Positions 50,180-56,079 of a stretch of DNA of 64,000 nucleotides are shown here, piece by piece (within the stretch, counting starts at the first letter, position 1; each line of letters starts with the position of its first letter). The translations under genes and the position numbers were made by a program. The stretch comes from an uncultured bacterium (GTDB lineage Bacteria > Bacillota_I > Bacilli_A > RFN20 > CAG-826). The stretch covers positions 485,119-549,118 of the forward strand of contig CASFKG010000001.1 of NCBI GenBank assembly GCA_949295325.1. The letters are read 5' to 3'. The notes under the pieces were generated by a model, which was not told the origin of the DNA, made no database searches, and saw only the letters and a program-made list of their open reading frames with translations.

Positions 50180-50935
50180 ATGGAAAAAGAAAGAAAGCCA
50201 AAAATCACAAAAGAAGAAAAGAAGAAAGCCAAAGCTGAAAAGCGGAAGAAACTGCGCGAGGAAGGCAAGGGCATCGTAAACGAATTCAGAAAATTCATAA
50301 GCCGCGGCAACGTGGTCGATCTCGCCGTCGGCGTCATAATAGGCAGTGCGTTCAGCGCAATCGTGACCGCGCTGACCAATATATTCCTAAGTATCTGCAC
50401 CTGGTGGATTCCCGGAGGCCTCAGCGGATTGGTTACCTGTTTGCCTGCGACCAATGCGGCGCAGGCGGGCGTGGCCGGAATCGGGCAGTCCTTCGCCTCT
50501 TCCGAGTTGGAGGAAATGACGATCATCTTCGCGGCTACCCGCGGGGCCGAGGGTTTGGAAGCCACCGATGCGAATTTCATGGATTTCCAGAATGCATTGC
50601 TGTCAAATTACACCAACCATGGCGGCACTTATTATTACAACGGCGCCAACCTCATAGACTGGGGTGCTTTCCTGAACGCTGTCATAACCTTCTTGCTCAT
50701 AGCCGTCGTCCTCTTCCTCATCGTGAAGGCTATCAACATGGTCCACAAAAAGGCCGATGCGATAAAGGCCGCCCAGCTTGAGGCCTATTATGTAAAACAC
50801 CCCGACGAAAGGCCCGCTCCGGTCGTCGAAGGCGCTCCAAAACTAAGTGAAACGGATCTGCTTATCCAAATCAGGGACGAACTCAAGAAGAGCAACGAGT
50901 CGAAAGTAAAAATAAGCGATGATGCAGGCGTTTGA
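50180..50935 (+). CDS. mscL: Large-conductance mechanosensitive channel, extended form
   Basis: EFRKFISRGNVVDLAVGVIIGSAF, GAFLNAVITFLLIA, LLIQIRDEL. Confidence 0.92.
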   Translation: MEKERKPKITKEEKKKAKAEKRKKLREEGKGIVNEFRKFISRGNVVDLAVGVIIGSAFSAIVTALTNIFLSICTWWIPGGLSGLVTCLPATNAAQAGVAGIGQSFASSELEEMTIIFAATRGAEGLEATDANFMDFQNALLSNYTNHGGTYYYNGANLIDWGAFLNAVITFLLIAVVLFLIVKAINMVHKKADAIKAAQLEAYYVKHPDERPAPVVEGAPKLSETDLLIQIRDELKKSNESKVKISDDAGV

Positions 50936-51749
50936 TCTAGGAGGCTGTCATTGCCGCTACGGCACGACTGCGGAGGGCCGTGTCGTCTATATTTCCGGGA
51001 CCGGCCTTAGCGTCAACGGAATAACGGTTGATGTTCGCGATTTTTCCGGAAGTCTAAAAGACGTTTTCGATGACCCTAGGATTCTCAAGCCGGCAACGGG
51101 TTTGGTTCTTTCGGGACGCTATCCTATCGAAATAAGGGGCGGGACTCCTGCTTTGGCCATTGCGGCCCTGATACTCATTTTGCAGGGGGTATCCACATCG
51201 GAAATCTCCGTAAAAATTCCATCGATAGATGAAAATGACCTGAAGGAATCCATCTTTTTGATCAACGCAAAGCACAACGATTTCGAGGGCTTTTTCGAGG
51301 GCTTGGGATTCGACGACGATAGCTTCAAAGCCGTTTCCAATATTCTCGGGAAGCGGGAACTGAGCGCCGGAGCCGTTCTCGTGTCTCCTAGGGGCAGATA
51401 CCTTGTTGAACACATGGCGCTTGGCCATTACTCCTTGCCTAAAGGCCATAAGGAAGAGTCCGATGCCGATCTCGTCGATACTGCGAAAAGGGAGATAAAG
51501 GAAGAACTAGGGCTTCTTGCCGACATCGATGCCGATTTCGACCAAGTCATCCGTTATTCGCCCTACGATGGAGTTATAAAAGACGTGCATTTCTTCATAG
51601 GAAAAGCCAAGGAAGACGGCATGGTCCTCCAAAAAGAAGAAGTCTCCGATGCCTATTGGCTAGAACCCGCCGATGCCTATCGGACTTTAAGCCACGGCTC
51701 CGACCGGGAGATTCTCCAGAAGGCACATGCCTATCTATACAAGGGCTAA
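50919..51749 (+). CDS. Nudix hydrolase (Ap4A-hydrolase-like) with a degenerate tyrosine-phosphatase-like N-terminal domain
   Basis: SAGAV, LPKGH...AKREIKEELG Nudix box, KDVHFF; N-domain discussed under findings. Confidence 0.75.
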   Translation: MMQAFDLGGCHCRYGTTAEGRVVYISGTGLSVNGITVDVRDFSGSLKDVFDDPRILKPATGLVLSGRYPIEIRGGTPALAIAALILILQGVSTSEISVKIPSIDENDLKESIFLINAKHNDFEGFFEGLGFDDDSFKAVSNILGKRELSAGAVLVSPRGRYLVEHMALGHYSLPKGHKEESDADLVDTAKREIKEELGLLADIDADFDQVIRYSPYDGVIKDVHFFIGKAKEDGMVLQKEEVSDAYWLEPADAYRTLSHGSDREILQKAHAYLYKG

Positions 51750-52622
51750 CTTTTCCATTATGTGGCGGGCGTAGGCCCCGGCCACGTTAATACCGGTTAC
51801 CGATTCTATTCCGGTGAGGAAGGCATTGGAGTTTACCTCGCAGAGAACCACATCTCCATTTGCACCTTCGAGTAGATCTATGCCGCAGTAATCCAATCCC
51901 AAGATGGAGGCCGCCTTCAAAGCGGCCTTTTCCTGTTCTTCCGACAAGATTATCTTGGTTCCCCTTCCTCCTTGGGCGATGTTGCTGCGGAAGTCCCCTG
52001 ATTCGTTCTTGCGTTTCATGGCGGCAACGACCTTCCCGCCCGTAACGATAACCCTGTAGTCGAAGCCGAAGCTCGTTGATACGAATTCCTGGTATAGGCG
52101 GGGGTAATACAGGAGCCTCTGTTCAAACGAATCGAGTTCCTGCCTATTCTTTATCAGGTGGACTTCGCGTCCAAGGCTCCCGAAGTTCGACTTGGCTACC
52201 ATGGGAAAGCCGAGTTCCCGTTCGAGGTTGTCCAAAAAGGCTTTGGTCGATTCGCCTGTGTAATTTAGGGGAGCGCTTATGGTTTTTGGCATTCTGATGC
52301 CGGCATTTGAAAGCGCCAAATGGGTAAGCATCTTGTCATCGCAGAGGCTTATGGCCCTCGCGGAGTTGAATACCTTGTAGCCTAGCCGCTCCAAGCCGGT
52401 CGACAGGTAGAGGTCCTTGTCGAGGAACAAGACGAAATCCGCATTGCCTAGGTTCGAAACGAGATTTCCGCAGGAATTCAGGTAGAAGAGGATTCGGTCG
52501 GTTCTTACCAAATCGAGTTCGGTAGAAAATGCCGAAAACTCTTCCTTCATCCGTTTGTAGAAATGGAGAATCGAAGGAGAGGGGCTGAAGGCATTTACGA
52601 TGCATATTCCTTTTTTGGCCAC
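51735..52622 (-). CDS. RimK/LysX-family ATP-grasp ligase
   Basis: CDDKMLT, MPKT, GSLGREV, DYRVIV, FRSNIAQGG, GIDLL, CEVNS. Confidence 0.92.
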   Translation of the reverse strand: MAKKGICIVNAFSPSPSILHFYKRMKEEFSAFSTELDLVRTDRILFYLNSCGNLVSNLGNADFVLFLDKDLYLSTGLERLGYKVFNSARAISLCDDKMLTHLALSNAGIRMPKTISAPLNYTGESTKAFLDNLERELGFPMVAKSNFGSLGREVHLIKNRQELDSFEQRLLYYPRLYQEFVSTSFGFDYRVIVTGGKVVAAMKRKNESGDFRSNIAQGGRGTKIILSEEQEKAALKAASILGLDYCGIDLLEGANGDVVLCEVNSNAFLTGIESVTGINVAGAYARHIMEKLALV

Positions 52623-52700
52623 GTGGGAAATTATGGCCGCAAGAGGGAAAGAGGGTAAGGGGTATTAACTGGCCATAAAAATGGCATTATCATGTCATAC

Positions 52701-54797
52701 ATGAAAATAAAACCGATCACCACTTTGCGCGACAGCGAACTCGTGACCAATCTGGTCAAAGACGGGGAGCCATTGCTTCTTACCAAGAACGGCGAGGAAG
52801 CCCTCGTCGTCTTGTCCCCGAAAAACTACTTGAAAGAAACGGCCGCTTCCGGGCGGAAAGTATATGGTGTCCCGTATGGCGATATCTCCGATCCTTTGGG
52901 ATTCGTGCGTGTCGAAGCCAGGCCGATAGAGGTCAAAGTAGCCAACGTAAAGCATAACCAGAAGGAAATCATCAAAGCCATGGAAGAGGCCAAGGCCAAG
53001 GGCGTCCACGTTCTTTTGCTACCCGAGCTTTGCCTTACCGCCTATACCTGCGGGGACCTCTTTTACGACTCTACCTTACTGGAAAATGCAAAAGAGGCAT
53101 TGGGGGAAATCGTCGAAAAATCGAAGGAATTGGACGGCGTGTTGACCGTGATCGGCATGCCTTTGGAAGTGTCGGACCGCCTTTACAACGTAGCTGTTGC
53201 CTATACAGGAGGTAGGATACTTGCCGTTATCCCGAAGGAGAACATTCCAAATTACAAGGAGTTCTACGAAGCCAGGTATTTTGCCAAAGCAGACAAGGAA
53301 AACAGAGAAATCGAACTTTTGGGCCAGAGGGTCCCTTTCGGAAACAAGGTCATTCTTGTCGATAGCAACTATCCGGACTTGAAGATAGGGATCGAAATAT
53401 GCGAGGACCTCTGGGTCATGGACCCGCCTTCCACCGGCCTAGCCAAAGCCGGCGCCGACTTGATCCTCAATATGTCGGCATCCAACGAAACCGTAGGTAA
53501 AGCGTCCTATCGGAAAGGACTCGTGGAGTCGACTTCCGCGCGACTTCTGTGCGCTTATGCCTATGCCAGCGCCGGGAGGGGAGAATCCTCCACCGATTTG
53601 GTTTTCGGGGGGCATTGTCTCATAACGGAAAACGGGAATTGCCTAAGCGAGAGCAGGCTATTCGAAATGGTTTCGGCGATAGCGGATATCGATTTGGAAC
53701 GGCTCAAGGCCGAGCGGATAAGGCTTACCAGCGTCACCACCACGAACGCTTCGTACGACGTTTGCTATTTCACGCTCCCGCTAGAGAAGCCGGGCAAACT
53801 CCTAAGGCATTATGACCGGAATCCCTTTATCCCGGACGGAGACGTCGATACCGAACGCGTATCCCTGATTATCAGAATGCAGGCCGAAGGATTATCCAAA
53901 AGGTTGCAGGCCACGAAAAGTCGTAAAGCCGTGGTCGGCTTGAGCGGTGGGCTGGATTCGACTTTGGCGTTGCTCGTGGCCGTCGAGGCTTTCAAATTGC
54001 TTGATTTGGATCTCAAGAACATCGAAGCGATAACCCTGCCTTGTTTCGGAACGAGCAAAAGGACGCACGACAACGCGGAGCTCCTGGCAAAGTCCTTGGG
54101 GGTTTCGTTTAAGGAAATCGATATAAAGGAAGCGGTCACCGTTCATTTGAGGGATATCGGGCATGAACCCTCAAAAGGAGACATCGCCTACGAGAATTCC
54201 CAAGCGAGGGAGAGGACCCAGGTACTTCTGGATTACGCTAACTCGGTAGGGGCCTTGATGGTCGGAACGGGCGATCTCAGCGAACTTTGTTTGGGTTGGA
54301 CGACCTATAACGGCGACCATATGTCCAGCTATGGTGTTAATGCTTCCATACCCAAGACACTGGTGCGTTACCTCTGCAAAGGCTATGCGATTGTCCACAA
54401 GGAAGCCGCAGCGGCCCTCAACGACATAATCGACACCCCGATTTCGCCTGAATTGCTACCCCCGGACAAACAGGGGAACATTGCCCAGAAAACGGAAGAC
54501 AAGATCGGGCCCTACGAGTTGCACGATTTCTTTATTTATCATTATTTGCGATTCCTTTATCGTCCTAGAAAACTATATGAAATAGCTAAGAATGCCTATT
54601 CGGGAATCTATGACGATCCGACCATCAAGAAATGGCTCAAGGAATTCTTCCGGCGTTTTTTCGCCAACCAGTTCAAAAGGAGCTGTTTGCCAGACGGCGC
54701 CAAGGTCGGGTCGGTCGCCATTTCCCCAAGGGGGGACTGGCGGATGCCAAGCGATGCCGATAGCGAAGCCTACCTTAGGGAAATCGATGAACTTTGA
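52701..54797 (+). CDS. nadE: Glutamine-dependent NAD+ synthetase with N-terminal Phd/YefM-like domain
   Basis: Nitrilase triad PELCLT, PK..IPNY.EFYE.RYF, EICEDLW; synthetase GLSGGLDS, ENSQARERT, GTGDLSE, QFKRS. Confidence 0.96.
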   Translation: MKIKPITTLRDSELVTNLVKDGEPLLLTKNGEEALVVLSPKNYLKETAASGRKVYGVPYGDISDPLGFVRVEARPIEVKVANVKHNQKEIIKAMEEAKAKGVHVLLLPELCLTAYTCGDLFYDSTLLENAKEALGEIVEKSKELDGVLTVIGMPLEVSDRLYNVAVAYTGGRILAVIPKENIPNYKEFYEARYFAKADKENREIELLGQRVPFGNKVILVDSNYPDLKIGIEICEDLWVMDPPSTGLAKAGADLILNMSASNETVGKASYRKGLVESTSARLLCAYAYASAGRGESSTDLVFGGHCLITENGNCLSESRLFEMVSAIADIDLERLKAERIRLTSVTTTNASYDVCYFTLPLEKPGKLLRHYDRNPFIPDGDVDTERVSLIIRMQAEGLSKRLQATKSRKAVVGLSGGLDSTLALLVAVEAFKLLDLDLKNIEAITLPCFGTSKRTHDNAELLAKSLGVSFKEIDIKEAVTVHLRDIGHEPSKGDIAYENSQARERTQVLLDYANSVGALMVGTGDLSELCLGWTTYNGDHMSSYGVNASIPKTLVRYLCKGYAIVHKEAAAALNDIIDTPISPELLPPDKQGNIAQKTEDKIGPYELHDFFIYHYLRFLYRPRKLYEIAKNAYSGIYDDPTIKKWLKEFFRRFFANQFKRSCLPDGAKVGSVAISPRGDWRMPSDADSEAYLREIDEL

Positions 54798-55587: not shown

Positions 55588-56079
55588 TCATTCGTCTTTA
55601 TAGACGGTTATGATTTTGGAAACCTTCTCGTGGACCTCTTCTCCGGGATCTTCGTAATTTTGGGCCATCGATGAAATGACCTCATCCGGAACCCATTTTT
55701 CCTCGTCCCTTTGTTTGTTCCGGAACAGGCAACCGCTGTAGTCGTGCATTTTAAGCAGATAAAGGTCTATCTCGTCGAAATGAGGAAGGTTGTCGATGAA
55801 ATAAAGACGTCTCTCGTCATAAAGCATCGTGGTGTCGAATATGATGGTAATGGATTTGTTTCCGTAATAAGCGGACTTGGCCAATTCGATCATCTTGTCA
55901 TAAACCGGCATCATGTTCTTGCCGGGAGGGAAGTCTTTGTAACTACCGCACATTTCCTTCCTCACCTCGTCGGCAGCGATGATCAGGCAATTCTCGTCAC
56001 CGTGTTCTTCAACATACTTTTTGGCGAAAGTCGACTTTCCGATTCCGGCGGGGCCACAGATGAGCAAGAGTTTTTTCAC
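55588..56079 (-). CDS. AAA_33 / Pnk-like P-loop kinase
   Basis: GPAGIGKST, DEVRK, FDTT, RNKQR...VP. Confidence 0.85.
   Translation of the reverse strand: MKKLLLICGPAGIGKSTFAKKYVEEHGDENCLIIAADEVRKEMCGSYKDFPPGKNMMPVYDKMIELAKSAYYGNKSITIIFDTTMLYDERRLYFIDNLPHFDEIDLYLLKMHDYSGCLFRNKQRDEEKWVPDEVISSMAQNYEDPGEEVHEKVSKIITVYKDE

Follow-up and report, generated by a model that had tools for sequence, protein, structure and literature searches.

A Phd/YefM-type antitoxin head and a toxin-antitoxin-type dyad on the NAD+ synthetase of small-genome Bacilli: a candidate self-regulating NadE

What use could an NAD+ synthetase have for the DNA-binding head of an antitoxin? The question is raised by the nadE gene at positions 52701-54797 on the forward strand of a 64,000-nucleotide stretch of DNA from an uncultured bacterium (GTDB lineage Bacilli_A; RFN20; CAG-826; contig CASFKG010000001.1, positions 485,119 to 549,118), here called the window. 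An original prediction, drawn from the letters of the window, had described the gene product as a glutamine-dependent NAD+ synthetase (NadE) fused to a Phd/YefM antitoxin-type domain, and had proposed that the enzyme regulates its own synthesis or links NAD resynthesis to a toxin-antitoxin (TA) or phage NAD-depletion response. Enzyme-repressor fusions, known as trigger enzymes, include PutA, BirA and NadR, which repress their own or pathway genes, and the N-terminal ribbon-helix-helix of PutA is also an antitoxin-type fold. In the computational analysis described here, negative autoregulation of nadE by the fused head is the best reading and one that we consider probable, because a domesticated antitoxin head, a conserved fusion and a TA-type dyad over the gene's own -10 box and start codon all point in this direction.

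The open frame of the + strand runs from 52692 to 54797 and encodes 701 amino acids (aa) when counted from its first ATG and 698 aa from the ATG at 52701. The latter is taken as the start because it is used in the public gene call (P0001, 698 aa) and because all relatives begin at the equivalent position. Residues 66-698 constitute a complete glutamine-dependent NAD+ synthetase (enzyme body at 52890..54794, followed by the stop codon at 54795..54797), with the Pfam domains CN_hydrolase, the glutaminase (52935-53711), and NAD_synthase (53874-54392). The NCBIfam equivalog model NF002730, 'NAD(+) synthase', matches with 801.9 bits against a cut-off of 473 and aligns from residue 69 of the 701-aa form, and the closest solved relative of the body is 3dla_A (E 4e-126), which we take to be the octameric enzyme of M. 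tuberculosis, with an alignment that opens at residue 11 of 3dla_A. From these two alignment starts it follows that about 63 N-terminal residues are extra, in agreement with the roughly 60 in-frame residues counted originally, and it is by these residues that the fusion differs from 3dla-type NadE enzymes, with which it shares the full-length equivalog match and both catalytic domains. The SGGLDS loop and the PEL, KEFYE and EICED motifs are visible in the translation, as read by eye and not aligned to a structure, and presumably include the Glu-Lys-Cys triad. The head escapes the automatic annotation of these proteins: the Atlas cluster to which they belong (231 members) is titled plain glutamine-dependent NAD synthetase, with CN_hydrolase and NAD_synthase as the only families given.

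The extra N-terminus (residues 1-49; 52701..52847, + strand) is, in our judgement, almost certainly a Phd/YefM domain. In isolation it matches PF02604 over residues 1-43 with an E value of 3.1e-6 and 27.3 bits, a score that does not reach the gathering cut-off of 29.8 bits and that falls to 23.0 bits in the full-length protein; the related model TIGR01552 (phd_fam) is barely passed, with 20.9 bits for a cut-off of 20.8, and the nearest free-standing relatives of the domain pass the PF02604 cut-off with 31.0-35.2 bits. Profile searches against the PDB point the same way: at E<=1, 13 of 13 matches of a profile made from 21 orthologous N-domains are Phd/YefM-type antitoxins, as are 7 of 7 matches of a deeper alignment at E<=0.1. 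An AlphaFold2 (AF2) model of the domain from a 91-row alignment has a predicted local distance difference test score (pLDDT) of 91.1 and consists of b1 (residues 2-5), a1 (6-10), a2 (12-20), b2 (25-29), b3 (32-37) and a3 (40-49). The top Foldseek match of this model is 4zm2_B, that is, Phd on operator DNA (template modelling score, TM, 0.77; root-mean-square deviation 1.9 A over 51 columns), and the matches listed are without exception N-domains of antitoxins, with few from outside the Phd/YefM family; owing to the shortness of the domain, their E values are no better than 2.6e-3. An earlier AF2 model, built on a 21-row alignment, was poor (pLDDT 68.9, with nothing but noise in Foldseek) and was replaced by the 91-row version. 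The identity proposed for the head is thus borne out by profile as well as by fold. That a word-based protein search with 75 N-terminal aa as the query brought up no more than 2 clusters reflects the low sensitivity of that search and not the rarity of the domain.

The original prediction had asked whether the heads pair. For residues 1-52, complex prediction gives a homodimer with a score of 0.48, whereas the highest of 3 controls scored 0.00; the mark applied to this score was passed by 20 of 30 proteins whose solved structures are pairs, compared with 1 of 23 whose solved structures are single chains. At least 96% of the contacts recurred between runs, the partner pLDDT was at least 74, and the predicted interface passes through b3 (residues 33-40), although the pass may merely echo the likeness of the domain to solved Phd/YefM dimers. 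Seven residues of the N-domain are invariant, P5, I6, T7, R10, K29, N30 and G31, and with the exception of I6 they are not named in the predicted interface, which makes their place there uncertain and does not exclude it. In the AF2 model the b2-b3 loop consists of K29-N30-G31, and R10 is located where a1, turn and a2 join. Mean pairwise identity is as high in the N-domain (0.50) as in the glutaminase domain (0.50), and amounts to 0.66 in the synthetase domain.

What follows the head differs from what follows it in a TA operon. Free Phd/YefM antitoxins continue after a3 into a toxin-binding tail of about 35 residues, whereas in the fusion a linker (residues 50-63; 52848..52889, + strand) leads directly to NadE. 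This linker is unconserved, since it measures 10-32 residues in the relatives with a mean pairwise identity of 0.10, and the toxin-neutralising C-terminal region is absent, as had been proposed. The observation that no toxin gene lies beside nadE also held, the flanks being genes for a RimK-like ATP-grasp protein and a GtrA-like protein. In the 95%-complete genome of the window, the ParE/RelE (PF05016) and YoeB (PF06769) families gave no match, Doc/Fic not having been searched, and the nadE head is the sole PF02604 match, with no second such domain. Neither the whole protein nor residues 1-52 alone matched any family among the PADLOC defence models. The suggested link to phage NAD depletion found no support in these searches. 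The comparative evidence supports a domesticated Phd/YefM antitoxin domain for DNA binding and dimerisation, deprived of its tail, and the fusion is conserved in at least 114 sampled genomes.

This figure comes from a survey at two scales. Among 41 genomes (that of the window and 40 relatives) the full fusion is present in 22, of which 18 belong to the window's genus, its own genome included, and 4 to three other families; two more have the fusion split across contigs and 5 have an unfused NadE. Among 401 sampled genomes of the same order the N-domain profile matched in 172, and the fusion occurs in at least 114, spread over four families. The best 150 places in these 401 genomes comprise 114 in frames of 627-755 aa, 30 in frames of 60-139 aa, 5 in frames of 283-426 aa, which were probably cut by contig ends, and 1 with an internal stop. 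Because the fusion recurs in four families and at least 114 genomes, it is no quirk of one assembly. The genomes measure 0.8-2.7 Mb, and that of the window 1.10 Mb with 55% G+C. A search with a closer, 8-row alignment returned 29 loci, 25 of them fusions of 704-715 aa and 4 not parsed; the window's own N-terminal 80 aa alone, used as a query for related loci, returned 0. When the NadE bodies are placed on a tree, one branch separates the 21 fused sequences from the 5 unfused ones (support 89/85; present in 88% of bootstrap trees). This tree, which is midpoint-rooted and contains two long rows, is consistent with one old fusion.

Some unfused and differently fused relatives deserve mention. Two loci (L028 in G018 and L029 in G033) have an unfused nadE directly 3' of a gene that by eye is nadD-like, without a promoter of its own, and their NadE bodies, which have long branches, pair with each other outside the fused clade. 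In L031 (G020) and in G028, a NadE-like protein of 565-577 aa matches in its C-terminal half, differs in its N-terminal half and has no Phd head; L031 still has the RimK-like gene beside it, and inspection by eye suggests that part of the left operator half may survive there. Beyond the order, a profile search of 1.84 billion representatives gave 2103 matches at E<=0.001, of which the best 150 are mostly free-standing proteins of 60-130 aa (...PITDLRNT...ITKNGYGDLVVMS...), together with NadE fusions and fusion fragments. The Phd-like head also occurs on a nucleotidyltransferase (Polbeta/NTP_transf_2; P0101), on an unnamed C-terminal region of about 80 aa that is common to several proteins, and in tandem two-head proteins (other-partner proteins besides P0101: P0029/P0012/P0020/P0036 and P0009/P0049/P0143). 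Records of the lineage are titled Bacilli, Bacillota or 'uncultured Mollicutes' metagenome-assembled genomes. Eight fusion-bearing loci (L038, L040, L042, L047, L050, L052, L056 and L058) stand under titles that name unrelated organisms (Bacteroides, Faecalibacterium, Escherichia coli and others; 'cleanbin' isolates), and these records are probably mislabelled bins.

If the head acts on DNA, its most obvious target would be the promoter in front of it. A consensus scan found 1 promoter-like site (52665..52693, + strand), where shuffled sequences gave a mean of 0.5, with a -35 box TTAACT (52665-52670), a 17-nt spacer and a -10 box TATCAT (52688-52693). As the -10 box ends only 7 nt ahead of the ATG at 52701, the nadE mRNA is probably leaderless or nearly so, with a transcription start deduced from the position of the box. 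Over this box lies an operator-like element (52670..52698), a degenerate copy of the relatives' (R)GCATAATTATG-n-TAnAAT-nATGWCAT, inside which ATGGCAT (52681-52687) and ATGTCAT (52692-52698) stand 11 bp apart. With a position weight matrix made from 11 relatives, the window's own site being left out, 52670-52698 ranks 2nd of 2,203,954 positions in the genome, and ATGGCAT-N4-ATGTCAT (52681-52698) is the only ATGNCAT pair of the genome at any spacing of 7-35 bp. An inverted-repeat search found in addition the dyad ATTATCATGT / ACATGAAAAT (52686..52708), with 10-nt arms that are 90% complementary and 3 nt apart, the centre of which lies just 5' of the start codon and which reaches into codons 1-3.

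The same region is better preserved in relatives. Most loci of the genus have TGnTAnAAT and 6 nt directly before the ATG, without a Shine-Dalgarno sequence, which suggests that the mRNA of the genus's nadE fusion is leaderless. Many show a dyad (A)TGRCATAATT-N7-AATTATGYCAT around the -10 box, from -27 to +1 of the ATG, and the element of the fusion promoters can be written as the core CATAATTATG, then TAnAAT, then ATGWCA, so that it lies across both the -10 box and the start codon. In a looser form, at <=1 mismatch, the dyad matches the nadE promoter and nothing else in each of 5 of 5 genomes; at 2 mismatches there are 1-9 other sites per genome for 0-5 with a reversed-pattern control, a modest excess. 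A strict operator model, ATGNCAT-N4..15-ATGNCAT, is unique in the window's genome, but in 5 relatives it missed the nadE promoter and gave other sites. In other families the fusion promoters read (GT)ACATAATTATGC-TATAAT and continue into a normal leader; at 0 mismatches this form is unique in G026 and G037, in G030 it is one of two 1-mismatch matches, and in G036 and G005 it is absent. The second core and -10 box with 1 mismatch in G030 (CATAATTATGGCATAAT, at G030:C3:73837-73853) may be a second target. Fusion promoters of families f7 and f8 contain GTAC-N8-GYTA.

The element is not peculiar to nadE. A comparison set of free-standing genes for the domain comprised 24 of the 30 short frames (G250, G073, G372, G231, G382 and G109 were left out). 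In two of these loci, L061 and L063, the free-standing gene encodes a Phd/YefM antitoxin that passes the Pfam threshold (34.5 and 35.2 bits), and a gene for a ParE-family toxin (37.3 and 44.8 bits) comes next and overlaps it. The toxin family scan covered these two of the 24 free-standing loci; for L062 and L064, which it did not include, the list of open reading frames holds no obvious toxin. The promoters of L061 and L063 read GGCATAATT(A/G)TGCTATAAT-TWTGTCA and lead into a Shine-Dalgarno leader; spelled out as GGCATAATT(A/G)TGC-TATAAT-TWTGTCA, this is the same element as in the nadE fusions, and the two operators are homologous. Within 75 nt upstream, the core CATAATTATG occurs at <=1 mismatch in 20 of 31 fused loci (10 exact) and in 7 of 24 free-standing ones (4 exact), compared with 0.87% of shuffled windows; a second control, other windows of the same loci (88/8084), is inflated by unmasked duplicate loci and by the reverse strand of a palindrome, and the shuffle is the cleaner of the two. 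Free-standing genes with the core are concentrated among those nearest to the NadE domain (5 of 7 at E<=1e-15, versus 2 of 17 more distant genes), and distant free-standing genes have variant dyads of their own. Because the core accompanies the nearest free-standing genes and is rare in the distant ones, the cis element goes, by this comparison of promoters, with the domain subfamily and not with nadE. Beyond the -10 hexamer, the symmetric flanks have been kept in four families and recur in the TA operons.

The simplest history suggested by these promoters is that a single piece of a Phd/YefM-ParE operon, comprising promoter, operator and DNA-binding head, was acquired by nadE. Such operons in the same order (L061 and L063) have an N-domain of the same subfamily (profile E 1e-19 to 1e-18) and the same promoter-operator layout, GGCATAATTATGC, then TAnAAT, then TGTCA. 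The fusion differs from them in lacking the toxin-binding tail and the toxin gene, in having its head joined to a 635-aa enzyme and, in the window's genus, in the loss of the Shine-Dalgarno leader, so that the ATG abuts the operator. In the ancestor, the 5' part of a TA operon, with promoter, dyad operator and antitoxin N-domain, would have been joined ahead of nadE, and the tail and the toxin would have been lost, with a floppy linker in their stead.

How such a head could work is indicated by better known antitoxins. In the Staphylococcus aureus YefM-YoeB-DNA complex, as reported (PMC7544224), two YefM dimers occupy adjacent major grooves on a pair of palindromes over the -35 and -10 boxes; Arg10-Gln11 of the a1-turn-a2 read the GTAC core, Tyr6-Ser7 contact the flanks, the b2-b3 loop contacts the minor groove, and yefM operators have the core GTAC(N)8GTAC in common. 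According to the same work, a YefM-YoeB hexamer, which bridges two dimers, binds DNA far better than a tetramer. The NadE head has the fold of YefM-YoeB and Phd-Doc (4zm0/4zm2) and, as R10, the arginine at the a1-turn-a2; the fusion sites of families f7 and f8 resemble the GTAC-N8-GTAC core, and the arrangement of two dimers on adjacent palindromes over the -35 and -10 boxes can, as far as promoter sequences tell, be counted as shared. The bridging co-repressor of the fusion would be the enzyme body and not a toxin, and conditional cooperativity through the toxin:antitoxin ratio cannot apply to it. By analogy, paired N-domains of a NadE oligomer would bind the dyad over the -10 box and the transcription and translation start, with the enzyme body as a covalent bridge between dimers that adds avidity in the toxin's role. 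RNA polymerase would thereby be blocked and NadE would repress its own synthesis, which would place the last step of NAD synthesis under simple negative autoregulation. In silico, the fusion is a single polypeptide that joins an enzyme to a DNA-binding domain, and its cognate promoter has a candidate site. The idea of a self-regulating NadE, raised at the outset, is strengthened by the TA-type dyad over the gene's own -10 box and start codon, and as a whole it is partly supported.

Several observations weigh against this reading. The head scores under the Pfam gathering cut-off; the register of R10 relative to YefM Arg10/Gln11 is extrapolated from an alignment; and the related genomes are kin, so that their counts are not independent. 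The operator in the window is the most degenerate copy, with 2 core mismatches and weak symmetry, the core is mismatched at 2-3 positions in 11 of the 31 fused promoters, and the unfused loci L022 and L025 have vaguely similar, AT-rich promoters. The strict heptamer-pair model did not pick out the nadE promoter in 5 relatives, and a by-eye comparison of the residue after R10 (D, N or K) with the operator variants gave no clear covariation. Moreover, the conserved element is partly an extended -10 box, and its conservation could reflect promoter function alone. This last point leads to the view that the head is only a structural tether, kept for dimerisation or stability of the NadE oligomer without binding DNA, and that the upstream region is an inherited strong promoter. 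The predicted dimerisation of the N-domain, the TGnTAnAAT box at the centre of the element and the weak dyad in the window would all fit, yet the invariant P5, T7, R10, K29, N30 and G31 lie outside the named interface and on the elements with which YefM contacts DNA, the symmetric flanks are kept beyond the -10 hexamer across four families and in TA operons, and unfused NadE enzymes of the same order manage without the domain. We consider a mere tether unlikely. An artefact, in the form of a mis-called start or a chimeric assembly with the true start near GFVRV, is scarcely credible: TTG and GTG codons do exist at the LGFVRV position, but by eye no Shine-Dalgarno sequence precedes the internal codons, the promoter abuts the ATG at 52701, the domain is conserved at the protein level, and the frame is unbroken in 22 of 41 genomes and in 114 of the 150 listed places. 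The findings that could have overturned the original prediction thus went the other way, as the head has both profile and structural matches, GFVRV is not where translation starts and the fusion is present in more than one assembly.

Two further alternatives concern what the autoregulation would respond to and whether the head has left TA biology. As a special case of autoregulation, NadE may be a ligand-responsive trigger enzyme in which nicotinic acid adenine dinucleotide (NaAD), ATP, glutamine, NAD or the oligomeric state alters operator engagement. Its architecture is analogous to that of PutA, BirA and NadR, and no NiaR 3H domain was found in the window's genome; according to PMC7544224, the state of the YefM-YoeB region after a3 allosterically tunes DNA binding. 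The unconserved linker (10-32 aa, identity 0.10) speaks against a precise allosteric link, and we consider this special case rather unlikely. Slightly more speculative is a toxin-free conditional control, in which the NadE body would be the bridging co-repressor, its oligomeric or ligand state (NaAD, ATP, glutamine or NAD) would set nadE transcription, and antitoxin and enzyme would compete for each other's promoters in G075 and G113. In each of these two genomes the fusion coexists with a free Phd gene that shares its operator core (L062 and L086 in G075; L061 and L085 in G113), and it is in such relatives only that TA cross-talk is conceivable; if it occurred, the competition would wire TA activation to NAD synthesis. 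Their gene content, together with the fact that the nearest relatives of the head are true Phd/YefM-ParE antitoxins, could also be taken to mean that the head is still at work in TA or defence biology, as an antitoxin in trans, a toxin decoy or part of an anti-phage NAD-depletion response. This is very improbable, as the head is without its toxin-binding tail, the window's genome has no ParE/RelE or YoeB match and no second Phd domain, PADLOC gave no match, and the neighbours are housekeeping genes in conserved synteny. Negative autoregulation of nadE by its fused head stays the reading that we favour.

Enzyme-repressor fusions are known, and what is new here is a Phd/YefM head with a TA operator on a core metabolic enzyme. 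The literature searched, mostly outside subscription journals and supplements, contained neither a Phd/YefM-NadE fusion nor a Phd/YefM domain on an enzyme; a preprint on a UG5 RT-nitrilase, which came up in the search, proved irrelevant. Compared with PutA, BirA and NadR, the presumed DNA-binding fold of the fusion is Phd/YefM and its candidate target is apparently its own promoter only. Control of NAD synthesis genes is the end that would be served in common with the dedicated regulators NiaR, NrtR and NadR, the folds of which are unrelated to the Phd/YefM head. Neither NAPRTase (PF04095) nor the NiaR 3H domain (PF02829) was found in the window's 95%-complete genome, NrtR and NadR not having been searched, and the fusion suggests how very small genomes of gut Bacilli may control the last step of NAD synthesis in a genome in which no NiaR-type 3H domain was found. 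If the proposed history is true, a selfish TA module was dismantled and its regulatory half reused on an essential housekeeping enzyme, a natural example of the birth of a regulator. A bridging partner that is fixed covalently could also serve as a tool in the study of TA regulation, helping to dissect the parts of avidity and bridging in operator occupancy.

The surroundings of nadE are also conserved. The RimK-like ATP-grasp gene (PF08443, E 2.7e-41; 51735-52622, - strand) is divergent from nadE across a gap of 78 bp, and this layout is kept in 15 fusion-bearing loci of the genus (within the range L003-L019) and in L031, so that the dyad could also affect the RimK-like gene. Two further inverted repeats are found in the intergenic region, TTTTTTGGCCA / TGGCCATAAAA (52611-52621 with 52670-52680) and TTATGGCC / GGCCATAA (52631-52638 with 52671-52678). 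On the far side of the RimK-like gene, 50919-51749 (+ strand) encodes a 276-aa protein in which 145 N-terminal aa without a Pfam match precede a C-terminal NUDIX domain (residues 146-267), which is not the architecture of NrtR; this gene overlaps the ends of two others, the MscL gene and the RimK-like gene, and is found near nadE in 6 relatives. Downstream of nadE lies the GtrA-like gene, and at 55588-56079 (- strand) is encoded a 163-aa P-loop kinase-like protein (AAA_33, E 1.3e-14) with a sub-threshold likeness to Zeta_toxin (19.3 bits for a cut-off of 22.3).

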